Shown: one piece after another, positions 26,756-43,691 of the stretch
Layout: each line of letters starts with the position of its first letter
Position numbering within the stretch: the stretch's first letter is position 1
Assembly (NCBI GenBank): GCA_965661285.1
Contig: CBFIDD010000001.1
Coordinates: 224,001-288,000 of the forward strand
Direction of reading: 5' to 3'
DNA: 64,000 bases
Source of the DNA: Poseidonia sp.
GTDB taxonomy: Archaea > Thermoplasmatota > Poseidoniia > Poseidoniales > Poseidoniaceae
The notes under the pieces: generated by a model
Told to the model about the DNA's origin: nothing
Database searches by the model: none
Seen by the model: only the letters and a program-made list of their open reading frames with translations
Made by a program: the position numbers and the translations under genes

Positions 26756-26813
26756 AGCTTCAACCCTCAGCATGCCGGAGAATTCTTTATCTGTCTCACA
26801 TTGAACCAATCAC

Positions 26814-27491: not shown

Positions 27492-27542
27492 TGAATACGG
27501 GCACTCAAACGATGGGTGAGGGCCGCGAAAATGGCGAGCCAC

Positions 27543-27599
27543 GGTCAGATCACCGATGCGCTGTTCAACGTGGGTGGGCAGTACCGGCGCAATATGTGA
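27543..27599 (+). repeat. 57-bp direct repeat of the icmF 3' end (26699-26755)
   Basis: 52/57 identical; all 5 differences are synonymous third positions (GQITDALFNVGGQYRRNM*). Confidence 0.95.
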
Positions 27600-27669
27600 T
27601 TGATTTTCCTCCTATAGTTTGCCGCCTGCGCGTGTGCTTCGTTATTTTATGAAGTTTTCAACCGAAGCC

Positions 27670-27677
27670 TTTATAAA
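27670..27677 (+). promoter_or_regulatory. TATA box
   Basis: TTTATAAA upstream of the 27747 gene cluster. Confidence 0.6.
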
Positions 27678-27746
27678 GGTGGTAGTCCCGACACCATAAT
27701 GCCCGCACCAACAAATAGGACCCATATACAAAAGGAGGCGAACACC

Positions 27747-27965
27747 ATGCAAACGAATACAATAACCGAAAACCTAGCACTGACCGAGCTGATGAACCAC
27801 GACGGAGGCGTTGACGCTGACATGGTGGACATTTACTTCCACTCTCCAGACTTAATCAAGGCTCTTACCATGGCCGTGAAGCAAAACCTTGTGATTTGGG
27901 ACAATGACAGAATCCACATTGAACCCAAGCTGTTCTTCGCCATGGTTCAGGGGGTGGCGTTCTGA
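27747..27965 (+). CDS. Small hypothetical protein
   Basis: AAGGAGG Shine-Dalgarno before ATG 27747 (alternative leaderless start 27699). Confidence 0.65.
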   Translation: MQTNTITENLALTELMNHDGGVDADMVDIYFHSPDLIKALTMAVKQNLVIWDNDRIHIEPKLFFAMVQGVAF

Positions 27966-29095
27966 TTACGCTCACGCTCTCATGTTCCAATCCACAATGC
28001 GGAAGCGCCATGCGACTGCCGTTCACAACCCACTCGGTTTTTCCGAACATCGAAAACCGTTGCGCAGTGTGTAATCAAGGCGTCCTCATCATTTCACAGA
28101 TTGAAAATGAGGACCCTCCTCTTGCAACCACGGCAGCCATCCATGCAGAAGCACCCGCCAGCGATGTCTCATTGAACGAGAGTCTTGGAGGAAACCGCAT
28201 TTTCACAGCATTCCAAAACCGATTGGCGCCTCTTGTCGTCATCCTTCAACTCATTGATGAACTGAGTGAGGAAACCGGAGACGTTGAGATTTCAGCCCTG
28301 GTTGAAGCCTTCAAAGAGCGCTCGGGATTCTTGCGAAAGCACCTCTCCGACCGTCTCGAGCACCCGCTTGGCGTCAAGCGAGGCCAGAAACTGTCGGACG
28401 GCTTTCCGGCCGTTGACCGCCCTGGCCCATTGAACATCACCCTTCGAAACTACATCGGTTGCGATGAAAAACGATTGTTGGTAGGCCGTGGGCTCATCCA
28501 GGAGTTTGACCTGGTGACCATTGTTGACGATACCAAACTCAAGCTGACAGAGAAAGCAAAGCCGTTCCTCAAACTTCCTCACCTCGCTGACAAAATTGAG
28601 ACCACACAGGAGTTGGTAGCGTTCTACTCCAATCCAGTTCTACCGAAGTACTACGAAGAAGCGTTTGCGTTCGAACTCGCTCATGCAGTTGGAACGTTAG
28701 CTCCCGATCAGCACGATTGGATGATGCACATTCTCGGAAAAATCATCGCTTGCGAACACAAGAACGGTTGGGATTCCAACGCCTATGCTGCCGATGAAAC
28801 GCAACTCGCCAGTGTTGGGAAGGCTCATGCGCGGTGGAGGCTCATCGACCACACGTTCGGAACCTTGTATGAGAAATTCGAAGCCCAGGCGGTGCGAAAG
28901 GCTCACCATGACCCTGAGGGACAAGCCAGGAGTCGTCATGAGAGCCACGTCAATGGGAAGCTTGGCAGCGTTTTGAGTCATCTCAAGGAACTCGGGTTCA
29001 TTGTACCCGTGGCTGTGGGGAACACGAAGAATTTCGCAGCAACGGAGCGTGGGCACAGATACCAAGATTCAATGTCCAAAGGAGTTGAAAAGTGA
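27962..29095 (+). CDS. Zinc-ribbon plus winged-helix-like hypothetical protein
   Basis: Extending upstream of ATG 28010 to CTG 27962 gives CSNPQC...CAVC; C-terminal LSHLKELGFI...ATERG is wHTH-like. Confidence 0.65.
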   Translation: MITLTLSCSNPQCGSAMRLPFTTHSVFPNIENRCAVCNQGVLIISQIENEDPPLATTAAIHAEAPASDVSLNESLGGNRIFTAFQNRLAPLVVILQLIDELSEETGDVEISALVEAFKERSGFLRKHLSDRLEHPLGVKRGQKLSDGFPAVDRPGPLNITLRNYIGCDEKRLLVGRGLIQEFDLVTIVDDTKLKLTEKAKPFLKLPHLADKIETTQELVAFYSNPVLPKYYEEAFAFELAHAVGTLAPDQHDWMMHILGKIIACEHKNGWDSNAYAADETQLASVGKAHARWRLIDHTFGTLYEKFEAQAVRKAHHDPEGQARSRHESHVNGKLGSVLSHLKELGFIVPVAVGNTKNFAATERGHRYQDSMSKGVEK

Positions 29096-29147
29096 TGATT
29101 TTTAGAACCCAAGGTAGATATACCTGTTTTGAAAGTTAGGTGGATGC

Positions 29148-31280
29148 ATGACGATTGAGTGGGTTTTTGATAAAGCGGGAGCGAACATGACCAAGCACCG
29201 TGACATGGAGGAAGGAATCGTCCAAGCCACAAGCACGATGACTCGCCTCGAGATTCTAGCTCGGGAAAACGAACAAAATCTTGTGGACCATCCTGCAGAC
29301 AACACAAAGCCCACACGATGCACCTATGAGGTGAAAAAACTCTCAGGGTCTGTCAAAGATGATTTTTATGCCACACTATGTATGAGTGATTATGGACCTC
29401 ACATAGATGGGGCAATAAAACCGCCCATTGCTGATTTCCCTGTTGCAACGAACCTTGTTTCAGATACCAGTGAAGACCTAAATCTTTTGATAATCCGCCA
29501 CGACAATGGAATTGGTTTACTCGGTGGTGAATTCATTGATGAGGGGACGGTCGACAAAAATTTTCGGGCGCTCGTGAAATCTTACGGACTTAATGAGAAG
29601 GGCGCAGATGGCGGCGGAGGTTCTCACGGTGTTGGGAAAAACGTTTACTGGCAGTGGTCCAAACACGGAATTGTCCTTTTTTATTCAAGCCTGTCAAAAG
29701 ATTACAAGGGCCACACTCGCAGATTCATTGGTACAGGCCGAGTGAAGGTGGCTCACATGGAGAAGGTAGGAGGGCCAACTTACCACCCCTATGGCCTCCT
29801 TGGAACAAAAACTACTCATGGAGGCGTTGATGCCTGTGTTTCGTTGTATGATGATGACGCAGATACCCTTGCGAAAAAACTCGGGCTAAATGTAAGGTCT
29901 CCAACTGAACCAGGTACAACCATCGTCATTGTAGGATTCAGGGACCCATTGGATCCAACAAAAGATTGGGTTGATGAAGCAATCAATGGAGAAACAACCT
30001 TGCGATTTTCGTCTGAGAAGAGTTGGTTTCCCGCAAAACTATCTAATGCACTCGAGGTATCTTATGTTGACGCATCAGGACCAGAAAACTGGGACCCAAC
30101 CGTAGGTAAAAGTTTTCGATTGTTGAAATGGTTGGAAAAGGGCCTTGATGAGGAGAAAGGGGCGGATGAATTAGTCCCCGGTCGCCCAAAACGTTGTCCT
30201 ACAACTTTGAAGAGAATTGAACTCGACTTGTCCATCCCAAGAGATTACCCAGGAAACAGCACAACTGGAGTCTTACGGTCAAAGGCCGTGCTGGCACTGA
30301 TGATTGTTGATGATGAAGAATTCGACCAACCGAACCCAGAACTTGGAGATGACAAATGGGGGACTACGGCGTGTATCAGACACACGGGCATGGTGGTCAC
30401 ATACAAACCATTCATTCAAAAACCTACAAAGTTTTATCGAGGCGTCCTGTTAGTTGGTAAGAGCGTTGATACTTTTGACAAAAAACTCCGGGGCACGCTC
30501 AATGCTGATGCACAGAAATTGGCAGAAGAAATGATGAAGTTCAGTGAGCCCGCAGTGCATGATGACTGGCAACCCAAAAATTTCAGCGCATACGTCGCAG
30601 GAAACGGTTCACTAGAATCTGGGTACAGAGCAGTCGCATCCGTTGGTGAAAGAAGAATTTCAACCTTCCTCAAAGATGTTGAGAAAGCAACAAGAGAAGC
30701 ACTTGGCCTTCTCGCACCACCGAAGGCCAAGAAATCTGCTGACTGGGCAGATTTGTCAAAAGAACTCGATTTTGGCTCAAGCAACTCTGATTCTGGAGGC
30801 AGGATCATCAGCATTACATCTTCAAAGGTGGTCAAAACTGATGGAAATAAAGCTAAACTTTCATTCAATGTTGATGTGCCTAGATTGGGGCCTGCAAACG
30901 GATGGAATTCGAAGACCACACATTGGTGGCTCAAAATCGTACCCAAACTGTTGTGGCCAAACGGGAAAAAGCAGACACCTCCCACAGAGATTGTCTGTAT
31001 TGACTTTGCTAATTTGCTGGATGATGCAAACAACTCAACATGGAAGAACCTAGCAAAGGTGAATTATGCTACTCGCAAAGCGGAGTGGAAGAAGAAAGCC
31101 AGCCGTCAAGCAAAAGCCATGAAAATTGATGAATGGGTTGGCAAGGTGAACCACTTGGAAAAGGCAGAAGTATTGACAAAAAACATCTCGTTGTCTTTCA
31201 AGAACATTGAAATTGACTTAACAGGATATGAGAATGCTATGTTGGTATTGTCTATCGAAGCTGGAGAGGTGAGACCATGA
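29148..31280 (+). CDS. GHKL-family ATPase-domain protein
   Basis: Bergerat motifs RENEQNLVD, HDNGIGL, GGGSHGVGK, PGTTIVI. Confidence 0.75.
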   Translation: MTIEWVFDKAGANMTKHRDMEEGIVQATSTMTRLEILARENEQNLVDHPADNTKPTRCTYEVKKLSGSVKDDFYATLCMSDYGPHIDGAIKPPIADFPVATNLVSDTSEDLNLLIIRHDNGIGLLGGEFIDEGTVDKNFRALVKSYGLNEKGADGGGGSHGVGKNVYWQWSKHGIVLFYSSLSKDYKGHTRRFIGTGRVKVAHMEKVGGPTYHPYGLLGTKTTHGGVDACVSLYDDDADTLAKKLGLNVRSPTEPGTTIVIVGFRDPLDPTKDWVDEAINGETTLRFSSEKSWFPAKLSNALEVSYVDASGPENWDPTVGKSFRLLKWLEKGLDEEKGADELVPGRPKRCPTTLKRIELDLSIPRDYPGNSTTGVLRSKAVLALMIVDDEEFDQPNPELGDDKWGTTACIRHTGMVVTYKPFIQKPTKFYRGVLLVGKSVDTFDKKLRGTLNADAQKLAEEMMKFSEPAVHDDWQPKNFSAYVAGNGSLESGYRAVASVGERRISTFLKDVEKATREALGLLAPPKAKKSADWADLSKELDFGSSNSDSGGRIISITSSKVVKTDGNKAKLSFNVDVPRLGPANGWNSKTTHWWLKIVPKLLWPNGKKQTPPTEIVCIDFANLLDDANNSTWKNLAKVNYATRKAEWKKKASRQAKAMKIDEWVGKVNHLEKAEVLTKNISLSFKNIEIDLTGYENAMLVLSIEAGEVRP

Positions 31281-32347
31281 GCAACACATCAAAAACACCT
31301 GCAATTATGCTGCCACACGAAACCGGAGAAATTACACTTACAAAGGCAATTGTTGAATTCAAAGATACATCCGGGAATCCTTGTTGGGACAAATATGAGT
31401 GGGTTAATTCTGATGATGATTCTCCCCGAGTGGATGCTCGCGAGTCGTATCCAAACTATTCAGAAGATCAACTCTATTCACCCGTTGATACCTGCGAGGT
31501 TTCCTTGACATTTTCTGCTGATACGGAGGATTGTCTCATGGATGTTGACGATGAATTCCAATATTGGGTCAAAATTATTAGCAGTGCATCAAAGTACCAG
31601 ATTGTGAGGCCTGGAGTAGAATCCAAGCGAGGGAAATATAATACCACGATGTCCGTCACCCTACTCCGAGATGAGTTTCTGAACCTCAAAGGACTTGTAG
31701 AGTGTGAGATTATCCTAATTAAATCAGGAGACGGCACGTCCGTCGGTACGAATCCTGTCAAGACTACCAGCGGAGTTTTTGCGACCTCTGACGGAGCAAT
31801 TCTTGCTACTTCCGATTCAGATTCAACGTTACAAATTGTGTTGGACGACCCATCCGCCCCGACATCAAAGGGAATGGAACTTGAATGGATTGACATGAGC
31901 GATACTCCAAACGCACAATATGTCTTGAATTATTTGAATTGTGAAAATCCCAATGAAACGAACTTCAAAATCACACTCCAATTGAATGACAAGTCTCACC
32001 TATTTTCACTTCGAAATGCACTTGGTGGCAGAAAAAAAGATCTGAAGAAATTGGTCATCAGCCAAATATCTTCAACTGTGTCAATGAATCTTCTCTATGA
32101 CCTCTGCAATACTCATGAAGCATTTATCCAATCCGTAATTGATGGTACAGCAACGCCAGTGGATGATTCTCTTCTAGAGTTCTGTATATCTGTTTTAACA
32201 GGTGTGGCAAAATCAATTAGCATGGATTACGAAGAGATTTTTTCGGCATTCGTGGGAGACATAGACAAGGTCAGAGAAATAGCACTCAAGATTCAAAATT
32301 CCAAAGCAATGGATGCTCTGTTGACTGAATTGGTGAGTTCTTTTTGA
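31277..32347 (+). CDS. Hypothetical protein, translationally coupled to the GHKL gene
   Basis: ATGA overlap and GGAGAGGTGA SD; acidic 356-aa ORF. Confidence 0.8.
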   Translation: MSNTSKTPAIMLPHETGEITLTKAIVEFKDTSGNPCWDKYEWVNSDDDSPRVDARESYPNYSEDQLYSPVDTCEVSLTFSADTEDCLMDVDDEFQYWVKIISSASKYQIVRPGVESKRGKYNTTMSVTLLRDEFLNLKGLVECEIILIKSGDGTSVGTNPVKTTSGVFATSDGAILATSDSDSTLQIVLDDPSAPTSKGMELEWIDMSDTPNAQYVLNYLNCENPNETNFKITLQLNDKSHLFSLRNALGGRKKDLKKLVISQISSTVSMNLLYDLCNTHEAFIQSVIDGTATPVDDSLLEFCISVLTGVAKSISMDYEEIFSAFVGDIDKVREIALKIQNSKAMDALLTELVSSF

Positions 32348-32356
32348 GGTGAAAAT

Positions 32357-33229
32357 ATGGCATTAGTATCAGTAAAAAAATTGCAATTGCAAAAAGACAG
32401 CACAGCCTCGCGCTCAAAGTTTGTTGAGGGCAAGATCAAACCATTGCACGACCCAACCAAAATATGGGCGAATCCCTTGTGGCCTCTTCCGACCAACGAC
32501 GAGGTTGTAGAAGTTGACGGAGTGGAATACAATGAGAATGAAGTTATCAAACTGCTTGACAAAGCGGGTGGTGACTTGAAAAAACTAATTCCTCTATCAA
32601 CAACGGAAGAGGCTGCAAGAGTCGCACTAGAAGCGGCAATAGAAGCGCGGAAAATTGCACCATCTGGGGCGAACAAAAAAGCTGCTAAGGCAGTGGAAGC
32701 AAAGGCAAAGAAAGTACAGGAAAAGGCGACTGAGGATAAAAATAGTGCCAAAATAAAGATTGAAACAAAACTTGGAATTGCGCTTCATGAATACTTGAAA
32801 GACCTGCCAAGGAAGATTCTCTTTGACAACGCTTTTTGGTTCTATCTTTTTTGGAAATCACCAATTTATGGCGTCCATCGATATGAGACTTGGGACCCTC
32901 ATGAAAATCAAATAAAGAGCGAGGTCAGAATGTACGGAGGGTGGACAAGAGCGAGTATTCCTGCTGCCTACCTTTCGTATTATCTCGCCAACGAATGCGG
33001 AATTTCTGATGCGGACTACAAGAAGAAGAGATGTGGTGCTCGGTTGCGGATGTGGATTCTTGACGAGTCGCCTCTCATCTCAAACAAACTAAGAAAGAGT
33101 TTTGTATCCGCCGTCATAGGCGGGAAAAACCTTGATGACACATGGAAAGCCTTGTTTCAAAAATTGGGCGCCCTTGATGTTGACACACTGACTCAAGCCC
33201 AGATTGACACTCTGATTGCAGGGCTGTGA
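32357..33229 (+). CDS. Hypothetical protein, DUF6339-like
   Basis: GAGGTGA SD; LHEYLKDLP...DNAFWFYL resembles my recollection of the DUF6339 motif (unverified). Confidence 0.55.
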   Translation: MALVSVKKLQLQKDSTASRSKFVEGKIKPLHDPTKIWANPLWPLPTNDEVVEVDGVEYNENEVIKLLDKAGGDLKKLIPLSTTEEAARVALEAAIEARKIAPSGANKKAAKAVEAKAKKVQEKATEDKNSAKIKIETKLGIALHEYLKDLPRKILFDNAFWFYLFWKSPIYGVHRYETWDPHENQIKSEVRMYGGWTRASIPAAYLSYYLANECGISDADYKKKRCGARLRMWILDESPLISNKLRKSFVSAVIGGKNLDDTWKALFQKLGALDVDTLTQAQIDTLIAGL

Positions 33230-33231
33230 TG

Positions 33232-34386
33232 TCAGGATTCTCCTAAGAGAATTATGGCAATGTGCTTGGCCATAAGAGGTGGCACGGCGTTGCCAAGCAT
33301 CTTGTTCAGATTGGTCCGTTTCTGATTGCGGAAGTCGAAGAAGTCCGGGAAGGATTGCACCCTGGCCGCCTCTCGAACAGTGAGGCAGCGTGCCAGCTTC
33401 GGGTGGGTGAACCGACCTCGGCCGTTACACGAGTAGCCGGTCGTGATGGTGGGGGCCGGTCGATCCCAATACATTCGCCCGTACACCGCAGGGTAGGTAT
33501 TGCCGCTTGGCCCGTGTTCGTCGTACTTCTGATGACATTCGGGTCGAAGCTCGGGAGGAAGTTCGTACTCATCGTTCTCAATGAGGTAATCCATACGAGC
33601 CTGGTTCACTTCCTTGGCTGTAGAGGCTGAATTGAGCACATCGTTTTCATCATACACCTCAAGGAGATCCCCAATCGCCCAAGATATGGGCCGCTCTTCA
33701 ATCCCCTGTCGGTGCTGGAATGACGAAAGATTGAGCGTCGAAACCCTGCTGGCGATTGAGAAATGTCGCTTTCGCATTTGTGGCACGCCAACATTTCGGC
33801 CGTCAATCAGGCCTTCAACGGTAGAATAACCCTCAGTCTCCAGCCAATTTTTCGTCTCGCTTACGACGTTTTGTTGCGCCCTTCGAACACCAGCAACATT
33901 CTCAATAATGGCGTATTCTGGCTTGAGTATCTCAATCATTCGAGCCATTCGGAGGTAGAGGAGGTTTCGTTCGTCTGTTCCTCGGGTGTGATTGTTCAGG
34001 TTGGAATTGCCTTGACAAGGGGGGCCACCAACGATGAGATTGATCTCACCAACCGATTCCATGAATTTACGTTCAGATTCGGTCGGAGGTTGCCCGCGTT
34101 CGCCGTCAATCACCGTCTCAATAGGCTCCGATCGAATTTCAACACCGGTGAAATTTTTTGCATAGACCTCTGTTGCGGCCGTGAAAATGTCCCATGCAAT
34201 GACGGGTTGCAATTGGATGTTCAGATCCAAACACGCTGCTTGTACGCCCATGCTGATGCCGCCACACCCAGAAAAAAGGTCAATCATTCGGAGAGTCCGC
34301 TGCGGTAAAGAGCGCAATCCAGGGCGGCGTTTTCTTCGGAGCCACTTCCAGTCTTGGTCCATCTTGGGCCGCTGAACTGACTCCAT
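33232..34386 (-). CDS. dcm: DNA (cytosine-5) methyltransferase
   Basis: DLFSGCGG, GGPPCQG, ENV, PQMRKRHF, GNAVPP. Confidence 0.95.
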   Translation of the reverse strand: MESVQRPKMDQDWKWLRRKRRPGLRSLPQRTLRMIDLFSGCGGISMGVQAACLDLNIQLQPVIAWDIFTAATEVYAKNFTGVEIRSEPIETVIDGERGQPPTESERKFMESVGEINLIVGGPPCQGNSNLNNHTRGTDERNLLYLRMARMIEILKPEYAIIENVAGVRRAQQNVVSETKNWLETEGYSTVEGLIDGRNVGVPQMRKRHFSIASRVSTLNLSSFQHRQGIEERPISWAIGDLLEVYDENDVLNSASTAKEVNQARMDYLIENDEYELPPELRPECHQKYDEHGPSGNTYPAVYGRMYWDRPAPTITTGYSCNGRGRFTHPKLARCLTVREAARVQSFPDFFDFRNQKRTNLNKMLGNAVPPLMAKHIAIILLGES

Positions 34387-34491
34387 GTTATCCTAACGAC
34401 ACCGACAGCATTTAGAGGTTGAGCAGACAATGGTTGAAGTGGAATCTCTCATTGATTAACACTTCAAATAGTCTGGTTGGACATCTCTACC

Positions 34492-35022
34492 ATGACACAC
34501 AAACTGGACCCTGTACTGGACGCTGGACTGCGCTCCAAGGCAAGCTTCATGAAATCTCAAAACGGAGAGAAGTGGGGCTACATTGACACCTTCAAGCACG
34601 AGCAAGGACACTCGAAGTGCGTGTTCGAAACCGATGAAAACGGTTCGTTCCTCCAACTGACCCTGATGAACGAGGACGTCGGTGATGAGCACGTCCCCGA
34701 ACTTCTTGAAGTGATCAACATCATGAACGGCATTCAGGACCAGGTTCGCTTCTTCTATCATCTCGGCAACGGTTCCCTCTTCGCCAAGCGCGAGTTCATC
34801 GTTGAGGGGCGCAAGCCAAAGCAAATTCAGGAGATGGTGTTTGAACGCTACGACCGCATGAAGGACATCTTCGACGACCTGCTCTGGTCCTATGATTGGA
34901 AAGTCAAAACCGGTGGGGATTTCGAAGCCCTCTTCGAGGCCCTTGCCAAGCACAACGAAGACCGCAAAAAACGCAAAGACCGCAACAAAGGAAAGGAAGG
35001 CTTTGACCCTGCTTACGCTTGA
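34492..35022 (+). CDS. Hypothetical protein, possibly YbjN/T3SS-chaperone-like fold
   Basis: Host-like codon usage; VPELLEVINIMN helix followed by beta strands; fold call tentative. Confidence 0.6.
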   Translation: MTHKLDPVLDAGLRSKASFMKSQNGEKWGYIDTFKHEQGHSKCVFETDENGSFLQLTLMNEDVGDEHVPELLEVINIMNGIQDQVRFFYHLGNGSLFAKREFIVEGRKPKQIQEMVFERYDRMKDIFDDLLWSYDWKVKTGGDFEALFEALAKHNEDRKKRKDRNKGKEGFDPAYA

Positions 35023-35140
35023 CGCTGGTGCTTCGCCCGCCCTGCACTGGGACAACCGGAAAGGGTGTTGGTTGAGGAATCGTGTTGAGCAGCCGTGAAT
35101 GGAGAGTCAATGTTTTTACTTGTTCCCAAAAGCGAACGCC

Positions 35141-36121
35141 ATGAACGGCAGTGAAAAAGGCCTGCAGGCCCTCAGTCTCGCTGCCATCGTGATCTTGTCA
35201 GCGGTCGTCATGGACCTGTTGAGCGAGCCCGACCAAGACCCTGAAATCGTCTATGTGATGGTTGACAACCGCATCATCATCGATGAAAACACCACTGTGG
35301 AAGAATTGAGCAGAGACGATGTTGCCAGGGTGGCTTCCTTCAACATCAAGGTGTTTGGCGACACCAAGATAAGCAACGCCACCGTCGTAGAGGAACTGGT
35401 GGACCTCTTCCAGCACTACGATTTGGTCGCCGTCCAAGAGATCAAAGACATCGACGAGGAGGTCCCTTTCCTCTTCCTTGATGAGTTGAACGATGTGGGC
35501 GCACAACGCGATGTTCTCAACCAAACGCTCCCGTGGAACATGGTTCTCTCCCAACGAAGTGGCTTGCAAGAGGATGACAGAAACTCTCAGGAGCAGTACG
35601 CCTACTACTACAACCCAACCGTGTTCCGGCCAATGGACAACGGCACCTTGTACGATGACAGCGTGAATGATTCCTTCCAGCGCGAGCCCTTCCTTGCGCG
35701 CTTCATGCTGCTTGATCATGATGGAAATGACACGGGCACCGACATGGTGTTCGTCAACATTCACACCAAACCCACCCGGGCCGTTGAGGAGATGAGCGCC
35801 TTGGGCGATGTCCATGCCTGGGGGCAAACAAACTATTCCGACGACGACGATTACGTCATCCTTGGCGACTTCAACGGCGATTGCTCCTACGCCTCATACA
35901 ACGAGTTGATTGAACTCTCCATCGCTTCGGAGAACTACACGTGGCTGATTCCCGACGATGCTGACACCACGATGGGTGATTCACGATGTGCGTACGACCG
36001 CATCGTGGCCTCAAGCGATTTGGACGGCCGCCTCACAGGCAACTGGGGTATCGATGAACGGGTGAGCAGCGGCGCAGTCTCCGACCACAAACCGGTGTGG
36101 TTTGACATCAAGCGAAGTTGA
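35141..36121 (+). CDS. Membrane-anchored DNase I-like EEP nuclease
   Basis: N-terminal TM; SFNIKVFG, QEIKD, FQREPF, GDFNGDCSY, WLIPDDADTT, CAYDRIV, SDHKPV. Confidence 0.9.
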   Translation: MNGSEKGLQALSLAAIVILSAVVMDLLSEPDQDPEIVYVMVDNRIIIDENTTVEELSRDDVARVASFNIKVFGDTKISNATVVEELVDLFQHYDLVAVQEIKDIDEEVPFLFLDELNDVGAQRDVLNQTLPWNMVLSQRSGLQEDDRNSQEQYAYYYNPTVFRPMDNGTLYDDSVNDSFQREPFLARFMLLDHDGNDTGTDMVFVNIHTKPTRAVEEMSALGDVHAWGQTNYSDDDDYVILGDFNGDCSYASYNELIELSIASENYTWLIPDDADTTMGDSRCAYDRIVASSDLDGRLTGNWGIDERVSSGAVSDHKPVWFDIKRS

Positions 36122-36226: not shown

Positions 36227-37054
36227 TTAGCCACCCAAGATGAGACTCAGCACCGAAAGGATGAACCCTATGACCATCAGCACCATGAAGCCAGCGATGA
36301 TCACAAAGGATGTACCGAGCCCTTTGGCGAGGGACCAACGCCCGGTGACCGCAGAATATCCAATCATGCCGATAAGCGCAATGGGAACGATGGTGAAGGC
36401 CAGCTGCTGATTTCGAGGTTGTTCAACGTCGTAGTAGTGAGCTTCAGCGCCAAAGTCATGGTAATCAATCCGAAGGCCGATGGATTCGTTGGCTTTACCG
36501 TTGAGTACAAATTCAGCCGTGTGGTTGAGCTGGTCGTATTCGCCGAGTTTGGTCCATTCATACTCCCCACCGCCCACAGCCATGTAGGAGTACATGCACA
36601 CACTTTGCAAGGTTTCAACCTCACAGTTTGCGTAGTAATCGTCTTGATGGAAGTTGTTTAGACCGATGAAAATTTCCGGACGGTAAGCCATGGAGAAGGT
36701 GTTGTAAGAAGGATCGATGAAAATGATGTACACGGATTCTTCCACGCCGTGCGACACCTTGGGGTCTGCATCAAACTGGAAAACGCCGTTGTCATCGCTG
36801 TAAATCGTCCATTCCACCCGTCGATCAAATTCCCAAGCACCTGGCGAAAACAGGCTGCTGTTGGTGAGGAAGAGAACAACGAGTATTGGAATCAAAATAC
36901 CCAACAAAAACAGGGGGCCATTGGCTTCAGGCTCCTGTTGTTCCGGTTCTTCTTCCACCATCGGCGCCGCCTTGACCTCGACTGCGCTCTTGGCTTCCTC
37001 GGGTGAAGAGGCGATGATGACGGGAGCTGGGGCGCTTTCAACCTCATCTGGCAT
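36227..37054 (-). CDS. Hypothetical membrane protein
   Basis: Acidic N-terminus, one TM, soluble domain, two C-terminal TMs. Confidence 0.75.
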   Translation of the reverse strand: MPDEVESAPAPVIIASSPEEAKSAVEVKAAPMVEEEPEQQEPEANGPLFLLGILIPILVVLFLTNSSLFSPGAWEFDRRVEWTIYSDDNGVFQFDADPKVSHGVEESVYIIFIDPSYNTFSMAYRPEIFIGLNNFHQDDYYANCEVETLQSVCMYSYMAVGGGEYEWTKLGEYDQLNHTAEFVLNGKANESIGLRIDYHDFGAEAHYYDVEQPRNQQLAFTIVPIALIGMIGYSAVTGRWSLAKGLGTSFVIIAGFMVLMVIGFILSVLSLILGG

Positions 37055-37166
37055 GGATTTTCTACGGTTGGGACTGCTATAATGCTGGCCCCTTCAACCG
37101 TCGTTTCATCGAGGTTTCAGGTTCCTTCACGGTGACCACCTGCGATGCACCAACGGATGGAGGTCG

Positions 37167-37230
37167 GGTGGCCCTGGCCGGAATTGAACCGGCTCCTCTG
37201 CTCGCGCAGCGTGCACCTTACACCAAGGGC
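37167..37230 (-). ncRNA. tRNA-like element with truncated anticodon arm
   Basis: GCCCT/AGGGC acceptor-like stem, D-arm GTGT-AAGGT-GCAC, CTGC-GCGA-GCAG hairpin, perfect T-arm GCCGG-TTCAATT-CCGGC. Confidence 0.6.
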
Positions 37231-37301
37231 GGGCCGTAGCTCCTCCACCATTCCTCAACCCGAGACACCTGCGTTCGCTTGCCCGTGTGCGAACACCGAC
37301 C

Positions 37302-38846
37302 TCAGTCGGCGCACGAGCCATCGTCAGGGAGGAATTGGAATTGATGCGGCATGGTCGTAACGTCCGTGTAATCGTCCTCGTCCAAGCACACGATGGTCAT
37401 CTCCATCGGCGCTCTGCCCATCATCGGTGGCAGGCAGTCGTAGTACGCCACAACGGCCCTCATCACTTCGCCAAGCGAAGCCGTGCCGTGGGATACGGTC
37501 ACGATGTGCCTGACCTGCATCGATGTGATGCTCGGATACGCCCTGCTGTAGGGTTGTGATTTGGCCAACTCGAGCATCGTTTTGGCGAGCTGCGGCGTGG
37601 CATCCTCGCCCGACCACTTCAGCCTCTTGACGGGATTGCTCATCCACGGCGCTGGCGACTGCAACTCCAGCGTTTGACCAAGCCATCTTGCACACCTTCC
37701 GACGACCTTCTGTCTGAGACTTTCCCTGACCGCCAGCACGGTGTTGGGGCCATGGAGGGCAGGGGCAAGCCTAAGCAGGTCACCGTGGACGATGTGGAGC
37801 TTGAACGCTTCACCCAACAGCCTGTAGGTCCTTTTTGGAAACCCGCCGAGCAAGAGTGAAGGATGGTCGAGCAACCACCTCAGGTAGTCGGCGTAAGCGC
37901 CCGGCGGCCACGCATGCAACGGAGGTGTGGGCCCGAGAAAGGCGGGACCCGGCTCGTGTTCGTCGTGAAACCTTACCCAGTCCCTCATCCACTGTTCATG
38001 TGTCGGTGCATCGGGATGAACGGGCGGGGTGGGTTCGCTGCTGAGCAGGTCGGCCACCGCTTCGGGCGACATCGACACTTCGGGCATGGTCGTCCAAAAC
38101 CAAGGCTGCATGGCGTCGTCCCAGTCTTTCTGCGCGAGGGGACCTTCCACACCGTGATGCACCTCAAACACGCTGGCGCTGTGGGTTTGCATGTTGCCGT
38201 AGAAGTCGGGCGACATCCACTCAACGGGCCCTTTGTTCACGAGCATGGAACCGTTCTCCAGGTGAAGCACGGCCTCACCGCTTGAGGAAAACCACGGATG
38301 TTCCCCGTCAAGGAAATGGGCGTGCTTGAGGTCGAGCACCACGAGACCGCCTTCCCTGATCTTGTGCACGTAAGCACCGATGAGGTGGGGAAACGCTCTG
38401 TCGTCGCCCGTGCTGTGCGGGTCCAACCACTCGAGCCAGTCCACGTAGAGGATGTCCACGGGCGGCGAGGCGGTCAGTTTCGAGAAGGCCTCGTGTTGAA
38501 TGTGAACCTGCCAGTGGGGTGTGGAAAGCGCCGCCTTCCTGTAGACGGCGTGGCCCTGCGACGTGTCTGAAATCCTTTGCCAGGTCGCCATCCCCGCCTC
38601 GTTGGCGTTGATGCCCCAACCATCGGGCGTGTACTCGCTGTACTCCACCACGACATGGATGAAGGGATGACCTGCATCGCTGACCAAACCAAAACTGGCG
38701 TGGTGGTGCATGGCGGCTGCGGGATGGACGATGACCAGCGGCCTTCCCTCAGGCGGCTCGATGGGCAAACCGATGCCAGCGGGCGGCCCGTAAGCCACGC
38801 ACCCACCGAATCCTTGGGGTGCTCTTCTGCTAGCTGCCATGCTCAT
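37302..38846 (-). CDS. Hypothetical protein: degenerate methyltransferase-like N-half, macrodomain-like C-terminus
   Basis: TGATG overlap with upstream stop; VDILYVD...KIREGGLVVLD; LHIVHGDL...TIVCLDEDDY; 22/22 Arg codons AGR. Confidence 0.7.
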   Translation of the reverse strand: MSMAASRRAPQGFGGCVAYGPPAGIGLPIEPPEGRPLVIVHPAAAMHHHASFGLVSDAGHPFIHVVVEYSEYTPDGWGINANEAGMATWQRISDTSQGHAVYRKAALSTPHWQVHIQHEAFSKLTASPPVDILYVDWLEWLDPHSTGDDRAFPHLIGAYVHKIREGGLVVLDLKHAHFLDGEHPWFSSSGEAVLHLENGSMLVNKGPVEWMSPDFYGNMQTHSASVFEVHHGVEGPLAQKDWDDAMQPWFWTTMPEVSMSPEAVADLLSSEPTPPVHPDAPTHEQWMRDWVRFHDEHEPGPAFLGPTPPLHAWPPGAYADYLRWLLDHPSLLLGGFPKRTYRLLGEAFKLHIVHGDLLRLAPALHGPNTVLAVRESLRQKVVGRCARWLGQTLELQSPAPWMSNPVKRLKWSGEDATPQLAKTMLELAKSQPYSRAYPSITSMQVRHIVTVSHGTASLGEVMRAVVAYYDCLPPMMGRAPMEMTIVCLDEDDYTDVTTMPHQFQFLPDDGSCAD

Positions 38847-39394
38847 CAGATGCACCTCGGATGATAGAGCGGGACAACCCTGAAGATTCTCTTGGTTTGC
38901 CTCTCAAGTCTGCTGTACGCCTCAGCCTTGCACACACCGCCTGACGTAGCCGACTTGGCCGTGTCGTAGATGGTATCACCGTGCAAGGTGATGATGTGAG
39001 CCGTGCACAACTTCCCCGAAGGTTGCGGGTCGGAAGGCGGGTCCTTGGAGTAGAAGCAGAGGAAGAAGAGGTCGTCGTAGGTCACCAATTCGTCCACGAA
39101 GTATTCCAGTCTCCTGACATCGTTGTTGCAATAGGCCAACTGCATCCCGTAGGGCTTTAGCGCCTCCGACCATGTGTGGGGTGCCTGTGAATTGGTCACC
39201 GCCTTGAAGTCCTCTGGCGTGGTGTTCGCTCCCGTGGCGTTGGCCACCATCGACAGCGTCGTGGCGACGCACGAAGGACCGACCTGCTTGATGTGCTCAA
39301 TGGTCACGTCGCCAAAGAAGGGGCCGTGGGGTTCGCCGTGTCTCTCGCTGTACCACAATGGTGCGGAGGGGTTCGGTCTCCAAGTGACGGTCAT
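38846..39394 (-). CDS. Peptidase C39-like (papain-fold) protein
   Basis: QVGPSCVATTLSMV (Q-x4-C), AHIITL (His), IYDT (Asp); GGAGG SD and ATGA overlap; 9/9 Arg codons AGR. Confidence 0.75.
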   Translation of the reverse strand: MTVTWRPNPSAPLWYSERHGEPHGPFFGDVTIEHIKQVGPSCVATTLSMVANATGANTTPEDFKAVTNSQAPHTWSEALKPYGMQLAYCNNDVRRLEYFVDELVTYDDLFFLCFYSKDPPSDPQPSGKLCTAHIITLHGDTIYDTAKSATSGGVCKAEAYSRLERQTKRIFRVVPLYHPRCI

Positions 39395-39618
39395 TCCCAT
39401 TCCTCCCTGAAAGCGTCGTCGAACTCTTGCCACTGCTTTTCGTCGTCGGGCAAGGGTTGTTCGGTCAGGGCTTTCATGATGCAATCTGGGCACGAGCACG
39501 GTCTCTCGATGTACTCGCTCATGTCTTGCACCCTCAGTTTGGTCAACTCGTTCTGGAGCCTGAAAAACTCCATCACCAGCATCATCAGTTTCGTCCATTC
39601 GTTCTCATTTTTCTTCAT
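39391..39618 (-). CDS. Small protein with CxCxxC motif
   Basis: AAGGAG SD; stop overlaps next start; 4/4 Arg codons AGR. Confidence 0.7.
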   Translation of the reverse strand: MKKNENEWTKLMMLVMEFFRLQNELTKLRVQDMSEYIERPCSCPDCIMKALTEQPLPDDEKQWQEFDDAFREEWE

Positions 39619-39634: not shown

Positions 39635-40456
39635 TCATTGATACTCAAAATCCTCGGGTCTTCCACCCGGCCATTCCCTCTCCATCTCTTCCACATACGC
39701 CTGCCTGTTCTGCGCCTCCTCGTACTGCATCACCCAGATGTGCTGGTCCTCCAAACAGAGGTGAATGAGCGACAAGAGGTTGGAAGGAAAGGTGCCCTCC
39801 AGGTGGTCGATGCAAAAATACTGGTCGTGGGTGTAGACCGTGGTTTGGCCCCCGTATTCGGGAATGTGTTCGGGGCAGGTCCAGTACTCGCCCAGCGAGT
39901 GAGCGACGTTGTTGGCGTACATGTAAGGGGGCGGCGCCCACTTCCACGCCATCGGTTTTGACGCAGCGGCCTTCTTCCTTGCCTGGTATGCGACAAAGGT
40001 CCCGGGCGCACCCCACTTCTCGAGGTCAAGACAGAAATCAAAGGCAAATTCGTGCCCGTTCTTCCCCTGAACGGTGATGGTGTAGCCGTCCATGGAAACG
40101 GTAGGATGGTCATGCACCGTCTCCGCTAAGGCAAGCCAGTGCTCTCTTTGCACCCAATCCTCGTGCGTGTCGATTTCAGGCATCAGGAAATGAAGCCCGA
40201 TGTCCATTGAGGTCAAGCACAACTCCCAGCTGGGCCATGTGTCCCACCTCGTCTTGTTCGCGATGTTGTGCTGGTTGTAGGCCGCAAAGATGCCAAAGAA
40301 GGCTGCAGGCTCGTCCAAGTTGGCGTTATGGTCAATCAGTTCGTCGGGATGGGTGTAGCCGTTGGCCACAAACCACTCCCCTTCTCTGCCAACCACGAAG
40401 GTATCGGGCTTGGCGTGGTGGTTCTTCTCGTTGTTCTGTTCATGTTCGTTGTTCAT
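39635..40456 (-). CDS. Hypothetical protein
   Basis: CAGGAG SD just downstream of tRNA-Arg(GCG); 7/7 Arg codons AGR. Confidence 0.75.
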   Translation of the reverse strand: MNNEHEQNNEKNHHAKPDTFVVGREGEWFVANGYTHPDELIDHNANLDEPAAFFGIFAAYNQHNIANKTRWDTWPSWELCLTSMDIGLHFLMPEIDTHEDWVQREHWLALAETVHDHPTVSMDGYTITVQGKNGHEFAFDFCLDLEKWGAPGTFVAYQARKKAAASKPMAWKWAPPPYMYANNVAHSLGEYWTCPEHIPEYGGQTTVYTHDQYFCIDHLEGTFPSNLLSLIHLCLEDQHIWVMQYEEAQNRQAYVEEMEREWPGGRPEDFEYQ

Positions 40457-40501: not shown

Positions 40502-40576
40502 TGGCTGGGGCACCGGGATTCGAACCCGGGTCAAAGGTCTCGCAAACCAATATGCTCTCCACTACACCATGCCCCA
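40502..40576 (-). tRNA. tRNA-Arg(GCG), CCA encoded, two U-U mismatches in anticodon stem
   Basis: TGGGGCA/TGCCCCA acceptor, loop TT-GCG-AG, T-arm CCGGG-TTCGAAT-CCCGG, A20, G73, CCA. Confidence 0.85.
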
Positions 40577-40588
40577 ATGGTCGGGAAC

Positions 40589-40663
40589 TGGCAGAGGCAC
40601 CCGGATTCGAACCGGGGTCCAGGGATCCGAAGCCCCTGATGCTATCCGCTACACCATGCCTCC
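40589..40663 (-). tRNA. tRNA-Arg(TCG), CCA encoded
   Basis: GGAGGCA/TGCCTCT acceptor, AGGGG-CTTCGGA-TCCCT anticodon arm, canonical T-arm, A20, G73, CCA. Confidence 0.92.
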
Positions 40664-40997: not shown

Positions 40998-43691
40998 ATG
41001 ACAACTGGAATGTCACCCCGAAACATGCTGATTGCCGGAATCGTCTTGGTTCTGCTGAACGTTGCTGCGCTTGCTCCATTGGCCACCGGTGCCGTTGAAG
41101 ACGTGGTGGACGAAACCTTCGAAGATTACTCCAAGGACGCCGTCTGCGCCAACGATGACTGTACCGAAGCCGAGGAAGACTGGGCTTCGTCCACGGCCCA
41201 GCGCGACTACTACGCGTGGGACGTCACCAACCTCGCTGAGGTCATGGGCGGTGCGGCACCGATCACCGAAAAGGTCGGACCCTTCACCTACGACATCACC
41301 ACCACCCGCACCATCAACAACTACGATGCAAATGCCGGTGAATTGACCTACAACGCCGTGAAGACCTTCGAGTGCGCTGCCGACAGCGCCGTCTCCTGCG
41401 ACACCGAGGTCACCCAACTCAACATCCTCTTCCAGGCCCAAGTGATCGGTGCGACCGGTATGGCCATGGGCGGCATCATGGACTTGACCAAGGTCGGGTT
41501 CGCCGTTCAAATGGTCCTTCAGGACATGAACACCACGCAGGCCGGCACCGCCAGTGTGGGCGACATGTGCATGGCCGACATGAACGGCGACGGAACGCCC
41601 GATGCGATTCCATGCCACTCTTGGGCCAACGGTGGACAAGCTGCACTCGCAGTGTCCGAAACCGGCATGGGCATCAAGATGATGAACAACGATGACACTC
41701 TCAACACCACCATGGATTCGGGTGATGCCTTTTCCGAGGGCAGCCTCGACGCCGCCATGACCGGCACGTCCCACCCAGCCGACCCGAACTTCAACATCTC
41801 GTTGATGACGCCGCTCGGCTCTGTGGCCTTCATGGGCCTGGGCGCACCAGAGACGCTAATCTCTGACGTGTTCGCTGACCCTTCCAATTCCACCGTGATG
41901 GCACGAGCCACCACCTATGGCTATCTTGCGATGGCCGACGCCACCACGCCCGACTTCTACACGACCTTTGTTCGAGACTGGGCCATGTACGCAACGGTGG
42001 GTGCCAGTTTCCAGGCTTACGGCGGCGGCAGCGACGCCAACCTCACGAACAACGACGACCTTGCCATGCGACTCCACAACCTTGTCGGCGTCGACATGAC
42101 CGGCGTGAACGCCGTTGGCCTGATGACCGCTGGCCACATGACCGACACCCCAACGGGGATTGTCGCCACCAACGCTGAGGGCACATCCTTCGGCATGGCC
42201 GCTTTCCTCGGCATGGAAGCCGGTGACGTGATGACCTCCTACAACATGACCGCAGAGCAGTACGGCGCTGTAGCAAGTTGGGTCGGAGGATGGGCCACCT
42301 CCCAATCATCTGCACAACTCGGCCTCCTTGGCGGCGTGGGCACCATGAACGCAGAACAATTTGTGAACCAAACCTTCGGAGGCATGAGCCCCGTTGGCGA
42401 CCCCTACCTCGAGCGCTCACTGAACCTCGGCGGCGCCTGGAGCAGCCTGTACGGCAACGAACCGGTTGACTTGACACAGGAACAATCCGCCAAGATCCTC
42501 TACGACCCCATGATTGGACTGACCACGCGAGGCGGTGCAACCCTGTTCATTTACGGCGAGTTGGCCGGCATGACCCCGCCGATTGACTTCACCACGATGG
42601 AATCCGGCACCCCTATGGTCTGGGACGCAGCCACCATCGGCGCCCTCTACGGCATCGACACCAACGCTGCCACCGCCCTGCGAGCCCTCATCATGGGACC
42701 CATCTACGGCACGACGGATGATTCGTTCGTGCCCGACTACCTCATGTCCACGTTTGGCACGACGCCCTACCTCACGCAATCCTTCAACAACTGGCTCATC
42801 GGCTGGCACGACCCCGTCAACGCCTTCCTCGCCACGGGCAACCCGATGGACATGAGCGTCGGGTGGTCATCGCTTGAAAGCAACGCCACCTACTTTGGTT
42901 CGGGCGGCATCGCTAACGGCGACGGCACCAACTACACGATGTGTACGGGTGAAGTGGCCGGATGCGACAAGGGCGAAACCCTGGCTGAAGACGGTTCAAC
43001 GCAACTTTCGTGGCGCAACGACGCCATGATGGCCGCCACCTACGGCCTCATCATGCCCGAGCCCCTCGTCGGCACCACCGGTGGCTTCCTAACCGGCACC
43101 GAGGACAAGGTTGACGTCAGCGGCTACGTGATTGCGGACGTTGAGCGAACCGGCGACAGCACGCTGAAGGGTATCCCCGTCTATGACTACGAAGCCAAGC
43201 AGGACGCACCCGGACGGAGCATCCAAGCCAACCTCATGGAGACCTTCAGTCTGCTCGACGCCACCCCCGGCGCCCTCCCCGTGTACTTCTCCACGGAGAT
43301 CACCATGCAGGCTGAACAACTCTCCGGCCTCATCATCGCTGGCTCCTCGACCAACACCTTCTACCTTGACAACCGTGCACACACGGACCAAGCCAGCACG
43401 CCAACGATGGACGACCTAGATCCCGTGTTCGAGATTCAGTCCTCCTCGATGATCGAAGACGACGACGCAGAAGAGATGGAAAGCGCCATCGTGCAAAACC
43501 AAAACAGTTTGACCTATTGGACGAACTTTGACTCGTGGATTGACTTCGTCACCCTCCTGTTCTGGGTCGGTGGCATCGCCATGATCGGTATCGGCATGGT
43601 TGGCGCAGCCAACACACCCGCCGAGGACGAAGGCAAGGACTTCTCAGCCTCTGCTGGGGACGAAGCTGCTCCAGAAACTGTTCAAGAGTAG
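40998..43691 (+). CDS. CD36/scavenger-receptor-class-B-like membrane protein
   Basis: TM helices at both termini; WDVTNLAEVMGGAAPITEKVGPFTY, WLIGWHDP, KGIPVYDY resemble CD36-family blocks. Confidence 0.65.
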   Translation: MTTGMSPRNMLIAGIVLVLLNVAALAPLATGAVEDVVDETFEDYSKDAVCANDDCTEAEEDWASSTAQRDYYAWDVTNLAEVMGGAAPITEKVGPFTYDITTTRTINNYDANAGELTYNAVKTFECAADSAVSCDTEVTQLNILFQAQVIGATGMAMGGIMDLTKVGFAVQMVLQDMNTTQAGTASVGDMCMADMNGDGTPDAIPCHSWANGGQAALAVSETGMGIKMMNNDDTLNTTMDSGDAFSEGSLDAAMTGTSHPADPNFNISLMTPLGSVAFMGLGAPETLISDVFADPSNSTVMARATTYGYLAMADATTPDFYTTFVRDWAMYATVGASFQAYGGGSDANLTNNDDLAMRLHNLVGVDMTGVNAVGLMTAGHMTDTPTGIVATNAEGTSFGMAAFLGMEAGDVMTSYNMTAEQYGAVASWVGGWATSQSSAQLGLLGGVGTMNAEQFVNQTFGGMSPVGDPYLERSLNLGGAWSSLYGNEPVDLTQEQSAKILYDPMIGLTTRGGATLFIYGELAGMTPPIDFTTMESGTPMVWDAATIGALYGIDTNAATALRALIMGPIYGTTDDSFVPDYLMSTFGTTPYLTQSFNNWLIGWHDPVNAFLATGNPMDMSVGWSSLESNATYFGSGGIANGDGTNYTMCTGEVAGCDKGETLAEDGSTQLSWRNDAMMAATYGLIMPEPLVGTTGGFLTGTEDKVDVSGYVIADVERTGDSTLKGIPVYDYEAKQDAPGRSIQANLMETFSLLDATPGALPVYFSTEITMQAEQLSGLIIAGSSTNTFYLDNRAHTDQASTPTMDDLDPVFEIQSSSMIEDDDAEEMESAIVQNQNSLTYWTNFDSWIDFVTLLFWVGGIAMIGIGMVGAANTPAEDEGKDFSASAGDEAAPETVQE

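Follow-up and report, generated by a model that had tools for sequence, protein, structure and literature searches.

The stretch of DNA analysed in this study, referred to here as the window, comprises 64,000 nucleotides (nt) from the genome of a Poseidonia sp. (Marine Group II), which totals 1.98 Mb in eight contigs, is 93% complete and has a G+C content of about 60%. In the surface ocean, Marine Group II archaea rank among the most abundant microbes yet to be cultured; to our knowledge, their RNA biology is almost unstudied. On the reverse strand of the window, two tRNA-Arg genes and three protein-coding open reading frames (ORFs), ORF299, ORF250 and ORF517, are followed by a conserved leader and a 62-nt tRNA-like element, which begins 71 nt past the TGA stop codon (37304-37302) of ORF517 (Table 1). 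The module is syntenic in two genera, in the order tRNA-Arg(TCG), often tRNA-Arg(GCG), one or two copies of ORF299, ORF250, ORF517, leader and element. The element is best explained as a non-decoding, tRNA-derived module that forms the last part of a structured 3' untranslated region (UTR) of this Poseidoniaceae operon of ORF299, ORF250 and ORF517.

Table 1. Coordinates of the tRNA-like element and its parts, the leader features and the neighbouring genes in the window.
Feature	Position	Strand	Remarks
Anticodon-less tRNA-like element	37169-37230	-	Rfam tRNA model, 23.9 bits over full length; 40 homologues of the same design; T-stem and acceptor covariation
Acceptor stem, 5' strand	37230-37225	-	Followed by one linker base
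D-arm	37223-37211	-	4-bp stem, loop containing GG
Purine between D-arm and mini-stem	37210	-	
Mini-stem CUGC/GCAG with 4-nt loop GCGA	37209-37198	-	Replaces the anticodon arm; followed by a 4-nt variable region
T-arm	37193-37177	-	5-bp stem, UUCAAUU loop
Acceptor stem, 3' strand	37176-37171	-	Acceptor stem of 5-6 bp
Short leader hairpin	37231-37240	-	Between leader block and acceptor stem; predicted by RNAalifold
Most conserved leader block	37239-37254	-	Begins GGAATGGTGG; unique in the window
Stop-codon hairpin (37309-37296) and conserved 12-nt motif (37296-37285)	37285-37309	-	Predicted by RNAalifold, with changes on both sides
5' arm of leader helix P1	37329-37340	-	In the last codons of ORF517; partner 37256-37243
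ORF517, last gene of the module	37302-38855	-	No family match; class I methyltransferase-like N-terminus (weak)
ORF250 core, 184 aa from Met at 39400	38846-39400	-	Papain/C39-like cysteine-peptidase fold (weak)
ORF299	39635-40456	-	Likely start ATG at 40456; no known family
tRNA-Arg(GCG) and tRNA-Arg(TCG), head of the module	40502-40663	-	Same synteny in the sister genus
ORF275, fast-evolving membrane-protein gene	36227-37083	-	Coding sequence 37054-36227; TATA-like box 37083-37078

The Rfam tRNA model (RF00005, gathering score 29 bits) aligns with the element from end to end, at 23.9 bits and E 0.015 in the 601 nt searched, in agreement with a first-pass annotation of the sequence, which had described a cloverleaf with intact D- and T-arms and a shortened anticodon arm. 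When the whole genome was searched with this model (E up to 5), 46 matches were obtained, 45 of them true tRNAs scoring 45.8-74.4 bits. The element is the 46th and the sole sub-threshold match (E 0.0115), so that it is the genome's single tRNA look-alike of its kind and the model match is beyond chance. Compared with a canonical tRNA, it retains the acceptor, D- and T-arms together with the elbow nucleotides (GG in the D-loop and UUCRA in the T-loop, within UUCRAUU), which are invariant across 40 copies. It falls short of 29 bits, and in place of a stem of five base pairs (bp) with a 7-nt anticodon loop a 4-bp stem with a 4-nt loop is found in all 40 copies. In the Rfam tRNA alignment, the tip of the anticodon arm measures 4 nt against 9 in the model, and linker positions 8-9 are deleted or cut to one base. 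The element was called neither by ARAGORN nor by Rfam at the gathering score, which reported just three real tRNAs in the window, and ARAGORN called no tRNA at the element's position in the window or at 20 homologous loci. The cloverleaf is the minimum-energy structure of the isolated 68 nt, but at z -0.21 versus shuffled sequences; folding energy is unexceptional (z -0.21 to -0.39), as is usual for RNAs of tRNA size. Since shuffled sequences fold as well, the support for the cloverleaf rests on the model match and on genome comparison and not on energy.

Other classes of RNA were also considered. No Rfam family except tRNA matched the element, the permuted-tmRNA model scored 12.2 bits (E 3.3) and ARAGORN detected no tmRNA genes in the genome. 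Both tmRNA and the Y RNAs, including YrlA, are likewise non-decoding and carry a tRNA-like domain; the acceptor stem of the element is local, however, and not formed from distant 5' and 3' ends as in tmRNA. The Ro60 (TROVE) gene is usually adjacent to that of a Y RNA or YrlA, and no TROVE/Ro60 match (PF05731) was found in the 93%-complete genome, which speaks against the Y-RNA-like mimic suggested at first pass. The element is therefore not a member of the tRNA, tmRNA or Y-RNA families. An ATG in the leader block opens a reading frame through the cloverleaf; a coding role is ruled out by indels of 1 nt and of 14-15 nt and by substitutions that follow the stems and not a codon pattern.

A score under the Rfam gathering threshold, the lack of an ARAGORN call and folding no better than that of shuffles might point to a functionless sequence, either a decaying tRNA pseudogene or a chance cloverleaf, although comparison among genomes, besides the uniqueness of the model match, makes this barely credible. 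When 41 related genomes were searched for similar DNA, nine loci in eight other genomes of the genus matched strongly (E 4e-36 or better); DNA matches of 27-30 nt elsewhere proved to be the T-arm of tRNA-Val and not copies of the element. A covariance model built from 10 copies returned 29 matches, one of them partly masked, in 26 of the 60 genomes of a genus-wide sample, which was also searched with 18 kb of the window. In a sample of 151 genomes of the order, matches of at least 60 bits came from three genera: 11 of the 20 further genomes of the genus itself had one, as did 11 of the 24 from a second genus and one of the 10 from a third, with no match of 60 bits or more in the other 96. Five weak matches (22-31 bits) were inspected, four of which are tRNA-Phe genes and one a degenerate look-alike.

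The alignment of 40 copies (39 distinct, from three genera) contains no copy with a normal anticodon arm. The tetraloop is GCAA in 19 copies, GAAA in eight, GGAA in two and GCGA in two (the window and one relative), and the remaining nine have non-GNRA loops (GCAG and ATGG twice each; AGAA, GTGG, GCAT, AATT and one more singly). With the tetraloop varying in this way, the resemblance of GCG-A to a tRNA-Arg(GCG) anticodon, which had been taken for a relic, is not a conserved feature. Length variation of 14-15 nt, seen in seven copies, sits in the leader and not in the mini-stem arm. In this alignment, which was fitted to our own covariance model, 96.2% of the cells are paired and the covariation score is 0.197; the shuffles gave 90.9% and 0.100, and neither of the observed values was reached in any of 500 shuffles. 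When partners were slid by 1-3 columns, pairing fell to 32-58%. Two-sided changes occur in three of five T-stem pairs and three of six acceptor pairs; the D-stem is invariant and the mini-stem shows G-U wobble changes only, so that neither informs on pairing, but both are under strong sequence constraint. RNAalifold returned the same cloverleaf from the 40-copy alignment and from an independent MAFFT alignment of 34 of these sequences, six near-duplicate or truncated rows being excluded.

Copies of the element share 90% identity over the core within the genus and 81% across genera, compared with 73% and 52% for the DNA of the neighbouring ORF517 and 56% and 34% for its third codon positions; over the 9 nt past the acceptor stem, identity drops to 25-27%, that is, to random. 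Given that the same shortened design is kept in 40 copies from three genera, that its stems covary and that its identity lies far above that of the neighbouring gene, including its synonymous sites, the element is not a decaying pseudogene, and these comparisons indicate that it is under selection as an RNA. Recent transfer of one sequence is disfavoured by the 52% identity of the flanking gene between genera. The first-pass annotation had proposed a functional mimic, to be refuted if homologous loci carried a normal tRNA (a simple pseudogene) or lacked structural conservation; an intact tRNA was found at 0 of the 40 orthologous sites, and the structure is conserved.

The origin of the element was also explored. 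Crude global alignment to the ARAGORN-called tRNAs of the genome did not single out one parent tRNA, with Val-CAC, Pro and His lying within a few points of each other. Among the tRNAs of the genome, our covariance model gave 19.3 bits for tRNA-Val(CAC) and 18.3 bits for the tRNA-Arg(TCG) of the module. In the sister family, tRNA-Phe plus its upstream leader scores best with this model. At three loci of that family (L080-L082), the 23 nt before tRNA-Phe(GAA) resemble the leader block and the bases next to it (about 16 of 23 identical), and the T-arm and 3' end of this tRNA are likewise close to the element. In the window's own genome, unlike in the sister family, tRNA-Phe is not the best match. 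These resemblances suggest that the element may have descended from a tRNA-Phe gene together with its leader. Two weak model matches that are not tRNAs, L083:998-1080 (genome G099, 24.1 bits) and L089:1701-1797 (genome G096, 14.7 bits), are possible decayed or distant relatives: one combines a block-like leader with a degenerate body in a genome without ORF517, and the other lies between a tRNA-Arg and an ORF517-like gene in the sister family. Viral contigs contained no exact match to a degenerate core pattern of the element. No literature linking tRNA-like elements to Poseidoniales was found, in a search that did not cover supplementary files, and the literature on genomic islands and tRNAs of Marine Group II contains no such element as far as its titles and the openings of its abstracts tell. 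The element is a new conserved structured RNA family, absent from Rfam.

Conservation extends upstream of the cloverleaf. The leader block is the best-conserved part of all: identity reaches 98.5% among copies from the genus, and between genera its first 10 nt are still 89% identical. It is not enriched genome-wide (17 matches compared with about 10 expected) and its distance to the cloverleaf varies by 14-15 nt, for which reasons a repeated motif or promoter was rejected. In the short hairpin that follows the block, a G:C pair is switched to C:G in 9-10 sequences, and seven copies have a longer hairpin instead, with the insert of 14-15 nt. The P1 helix, predicted by RNAalifold from 18 sequences of the genus and also by the minimum-energy fold of the window sequence, encloses the hairpin that carries the stop codon of ORF517. 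The adjoining 12-nt motif is present, with at most two mismatches, in 27 of the 36 leaders examined. Over the last 14 codons of ORF517, codon identity among pairs with the same residue is 0.85-0.87 compared with a mean of 0.60 for the gene, and this suppression of synonymous change agrees with a P1 helix that reaches into the coding sequence. In one lineage, by manual reading, a synonymous C-to-U change at the end of ORF517 is matched by a G-to-A change in the block. In the second genus, an equivalent stem domain of about 80 nt stands right after the stop codon, with compensatory changes in its closing helix. Since the leader is itself structured and conserved and not a spacer, the conserved RNA measures about 175-190 nt and consists of leader domain, block, small hairpin and cloverleaf.

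Not all of the structure proposed at first pass belongs to this RNA. A GTTCGC/GCGAAC hairpin (37294-37273) does exist (z -0.90, with 35 of 200 shuffles as good); its full pairing is confined to a few close relatives and its conservation to the 5' arm, which lies within the 12-nt motif. A long interrupted stem (37156-37098, reverse strand) also folds (z -2.51, with 5 of 200 shuffles as good) but is not conserved: it lies in the variable trailer, and in the closest relative sharing the stretch (L042) two uncompensated substitutions break an arm. Conversely, the upstream helix arm at 37340-37329, a conserved partner, lies outside the limits that had been drawn for the RNA. At two loci of the second genus (L071 and L070), a 5-nt gap near the end of ORF517, relative to other genomes, shifts the last 24 or so conserved codons into a different frame that overlaps the apparent stop codon; a frameshift, an assembly error and a small ORF in its own right are all conceivable.

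The leader structure could also be read as part of an uncleaved, cis-acting 3'-UTR domain that tunes termination on ORF517, ribosome recycling or mRNA decay. The predicted pairing of the last ORF517 codons with the leader block, the placement of the stop codon in a hairpin and the constraint on the synonymous sites of the last 14 codons would fit such a role. We nevertheless regard it as very unlikely, as the helix reaching into the coding sequence is predicted in one genus only, its support comes mostly from invariant columns, and the retention of a full tRNA elbow would remain unexplained.

The genes of the module offer few clues to function. The tRNA-Arg genes are second copies, the same anticodons being present on contigs C5 and C4. 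The pair is diverged and heads the module across the family and beyond; by manual reading, it has unusual first acceptor pairs (U-A and G-U) and an encoded CCA. ORF299, ORF250 and ORF517 had no match in Pfam, NCBIfam, PHROGs or PADLOC, and a PDB sequence search with the module proteins gave only matches of E 0.1 or worse. ORF299, of which the sister genus carries one copy or two, had no usable match in the Atlas. For the ORF250 core, in the alignment of which a Cys and a His are invariant, the structural model has a predicted local distance difference test (pLDDT) score of 65 and Foldseek matches C39 peptidase domains at template modelling (TM) scores of 0.43-0.55, a weak indication of a putative papain/C39-like cysteine peptidase. 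The ORF517 model (pLDDT 78) weakly suggests a class I methyltransferase-like domain in the N-terminal 230 or so residues, which match methyltransferases in Foldseek at TM 0.35-0.46; in the Atlas, ORF517 matched clusters of hypothetical proteins only, plus a methyltransferase lead of 0.88. A viral origin was rejected, with no relative of ORF250 in viral contigs and no PHROG match for seven proteins. In the order sample, the element is present in all 12 genomes of the genus in which the 3' end of ORF517 lies on the contig, and in 10 of the 12 such genomes of the second genus.

The position of the element, on the same strand as the operon, 71 nt past a stop codon and with no promoter-like box of its own seen, is best fitted by a processing signal. 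By eye, an AT-rich box is seen about 30 nt upstream of most true tRNA genes of the genome and none in the leader, and the downstream gene ORF275 has a TATA-like box of its own. A processing signal or mascRNA-like mimic was among the options listed at first pass. We favour tentatively, at somewhat less than an even chance, the version in which RNase P and tRNase Z act on the element as a t-element or mascRNA-type signal, by which the operon mRNA acquires a fixed and protected 3' end; from the fold, conservation, position and leader structure observed here, we infer co-transcription, cleavage and stabilisation. The operon transcript would continue through the leader of about 70 nt into the cloverleaf, where the tRNA-maturation enzymes would recognise the intact elbow of D- and T-loops and the coaxial stack of acceptor and T-stem. 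Cuts by RNase P at about 37231/37230 and by tRNase Z just past 37171-37169 would give the operon mRNA a defined 3' end. Closed off by the leader helix and the small hairpin, this end would be protected from 3' exonucleases, and the mRNA would be uncoupled from whichever gene comes next in the variable island. The tRNA-like RNA, about 62 nt long, would be set free, either as a by-product or to serve a function of its own. Of the enzymes, the genome encodes the RNA of an archaeal RNase P (227.6 bits) and an RNase Z-like ORF (109 and 62 bits, below the family cut-off of 293 bits). Also in favour of a 3'-end signal, T-rich, terminator-like stretches take the place of the element after the ORF517 stop codon in two of the genomes that lack it.

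Several observations weigh against a processing signal. No archaeal CCA-adding enzyme family was found in the 93%-complete genome, and linker positions 8-9 are missing from the predicted substrate of RNase P and tRNase Z. The D-arm and mini-stem do not vary across three genera, a tighter constraint than would be expected of a signal recognised by shape. The leader block is likewise over-conserved and, predicted as the 3' arm of a helix within the genus, is predicted to be single-stranded in the sister genus. In addition, no element was found, with filters off, at the ORF517 orthologues of G087, G105 and G175 or at the distant modules of G096, G117 and G185, so that in some lineages the element is dispensable for the operon. 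In G101 and G128, on the other hand, the element occurs without a neighbouring ORF517 (2 of 40 loci), which hints at a role of its own.

Known systems offer parallels for cleavage at a tRNA-like fold. In MALAT1/mascRNA, and in MEN-beta, an RNase P cut makes the 3' end of the upstream RNA, a conserved upstream structure protects that end and a small tRNA-like RNA is released. As is proposed for this locus, a tRNA-like element with a reduced anticodon arm stands at the 3' end of a long transcript; MALAT1, however, is a long non-coding RNA of the eukaryotic nucleus protected by a triple helix, whereas an archaeal mRNA with a predicted helix and hairpin would be concerned here, and the likeness is one of analogy and not of homology. 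Plant mitochondrial t-elements are usually poorly conserved, partial tRNA shapes, and the element differs from these organellar sequences in keeping the full elbow and in its high conservation. They are reported to contribute to the formation of mRNA 5' and 3' ends (PMC1920247). The t-elements of Haloferax volcanii, one of which lies upstream of 5S rRNA, are, like the element, archaeal non-decoding tRNA-like folds, and they adjoin another RNA on one transcript, as is proposed here. RNase P and tRNase Z cut these tRNA-like sequences and so define the ends of the neighbour (PMC4326828). The Poseidonia element lies next to a protein operon and not an rRNA, has a tetraloop mini-stem and a structured leader and shows no sequence relationship to them; moreover, cleavage is described in Haloferax and is a proposal here. 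By analogy, the working of the element would come closest to that of a t-element or mascRNA. Should RNase P and tRNase Z cut it, archaeal protein operons would join organelles, vertebrate long non-coding RNAs and haloarchaeal rRNA as sites of tRNA punctuation, and archaeal genetics would gain a ready-made processing module; as a mere processing signal, it would be a modest addition to a known theme.

The invariant D-arm and mini-stem beside covarying T- and acceptor stems, as would be expected for a sequence-specific partner, could suggest instead a stand-alone, trans-acting small RNA, the tRNA shape of which recruits a tRNA-binding partner so that the RNA acts as regulator, scaffold or decoy. 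This partner could be one of the module enzymes or else a synthetase, elongation factor or modification enzyme, and the position at the operon end would serve expression only. The survival of the element without ORF517 at two loci and the exceptional conservation of the leader block are consistent with this possibility, as are the weak structural matches of the ORF517 model, which include RNA methyltransferases (fibrillarin). The pseudo-tRNA tRNA-Other of Bacillus cereus, which keeps its anticodon arm, provides a bacterial precedent, sharing the position at the edge of a genomic island and the non-translating, tRNA-like nature. It is reported to have a cellular role as a regulator (PMC3399842) and is not known to be linked to the 3' end of an operon. 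Bacterial Y RNAs are reported to mimic tRNA (10.1101/312249). We consider a trans-acting RNA rather unlikely, given that no promoter-like box was seen by eye, that the element is single-copy and nearly always tied to one operon, that TROVE/Ro60 is missing among the matches of the genome and that only one GluRS-type catalytic domain was found there, with no second to charge an RNA lacking an anticodon. Highly doubtful, too, is the idea that leader and cloverleaf together (about 175-190 nt) form a stable 3'-UTR-derived RNA partnering the module enzymes and their private tRNA-Arg genes; it could, for instance, be an anticodon-independent, CCA-tailed carrier or scaffold in tRNA-dependent transfer of peptides or amino acids. 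If the RNA proves to be a working partner of the module enzymes, it would belong to a hitherto undescribed class of archaeal ribonucleoprotein built on a tRNA mimic, as opposed to a passive signal for cutting.

The element also marks the edge of a variable region. Although the first-pass annotation had placed it after the last coding sequence, the first gene of this region, ORF275, comes next in the same orientation and has a separate TATA-like box some 25 nt ahead of its start codon. ORF275, which has an acidic, proline-rich N-terminus, has homologues at the DNA level in four genomes of the genus only, and between species these are barely alignable as DNA. More than 20 DNA matches from across the genus begin at window positions 37169-37178 and run rightwards through the module, and matches to icmF, an icmF-type fused methylmalonyl-CoA mutase gene, end exactly at its stop codon (26755). 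The distance between icmF and the element is 24 kb on one contig in genome G011 and 10.4 kb here, gene content past the element differs among genomes in which the upstream block is 75-84% identical, and the sister genus shows the same homology break at the element's 3' end. Next to icmF, the stretch 26756-34490 matched nothing in any of the 59 other genomes of the genus-wide sample. Its G+C content falls to 44-50%, and it holds a C5 cytosine methylase (33232-34386), a 710-aa protein (29148-31280) matching the candidate defence family PDC-M33A (E 6.7e-10) and four ORFs of no known family; by sequence, it is probably a recently acquired defence island. ORF199 and a gene of the endonuclease/exonuclease/phosphatase family (34456-36121) are present in many genomes, in some of them directly adjoining the element. 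The last 77 nt of icmF (26679-26755) are duplicated at 27523-27599, 844 nt downstream, with 84% identity, an apparent scar left by an insertion that carried a copy of this 3' end with it.

These features could reflect a role at the DNA level, with the element as a tRNA-derived recombination anchor at one edge of the flexible island and the 3' end of icmF at the other, and such a role could coexist with an RNA function. As at canonical tRNA integration sites, the flexible island starts, and homology breaks, at the 3' end of the element; here, however, neither an integrase nor a duplicated 3' segment accompanies it. A search confined to tyrosine recombinases found none near the element in this genome or on its contig in five others, the sole PF00589 match of the genome lying about 270 kb away on the same contig, and no repeat of the 3' segment was found in the window at up to three mismatches, nor a repeat family. 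An insert of about 360 nt beside the element in two genomes has no flanking repeat. Compensatory changes in the stems would be needless for a DNA site. Furthermore, at several loci the non-alignable DNA downstream still opens with a TATA-like box and a diverged homologue of ORF275, so that part of the homology break is the end of constraint. A DNA-level function as the explanation of the element is quite unlikely, and the sharp break is read as the end of strong constraint plus a favoured crossover anchor and not as a classical attachment site. Standing at the exact edge of an island that bears defence genes, the element offers a good site to ask whether conserved RNA genes anchor exchange without integrases.

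An integration footprint of the classic kind is found elsewhere in the genome. On contig C6 (117343-117612), two tandem repeats, each about 95 nt long, stand behind tRNA-Val(CAC), and both end with the final 30 or so nt of the tRNA, which is the footprint of elements that integrate at the 3' end of a tRNA gene; similar extra partial copies occur near tRNA-Val elsewhere in the genus. On the other side of the module, on the forward strand, positions 40998-43691 encode an 897-aa protein, residues 56-173 of which match the CD36 family of Pfam (E 7.6e-15), an odd match in an archaeon for a family otherwise typical of eukaryotic scavenger receptors.

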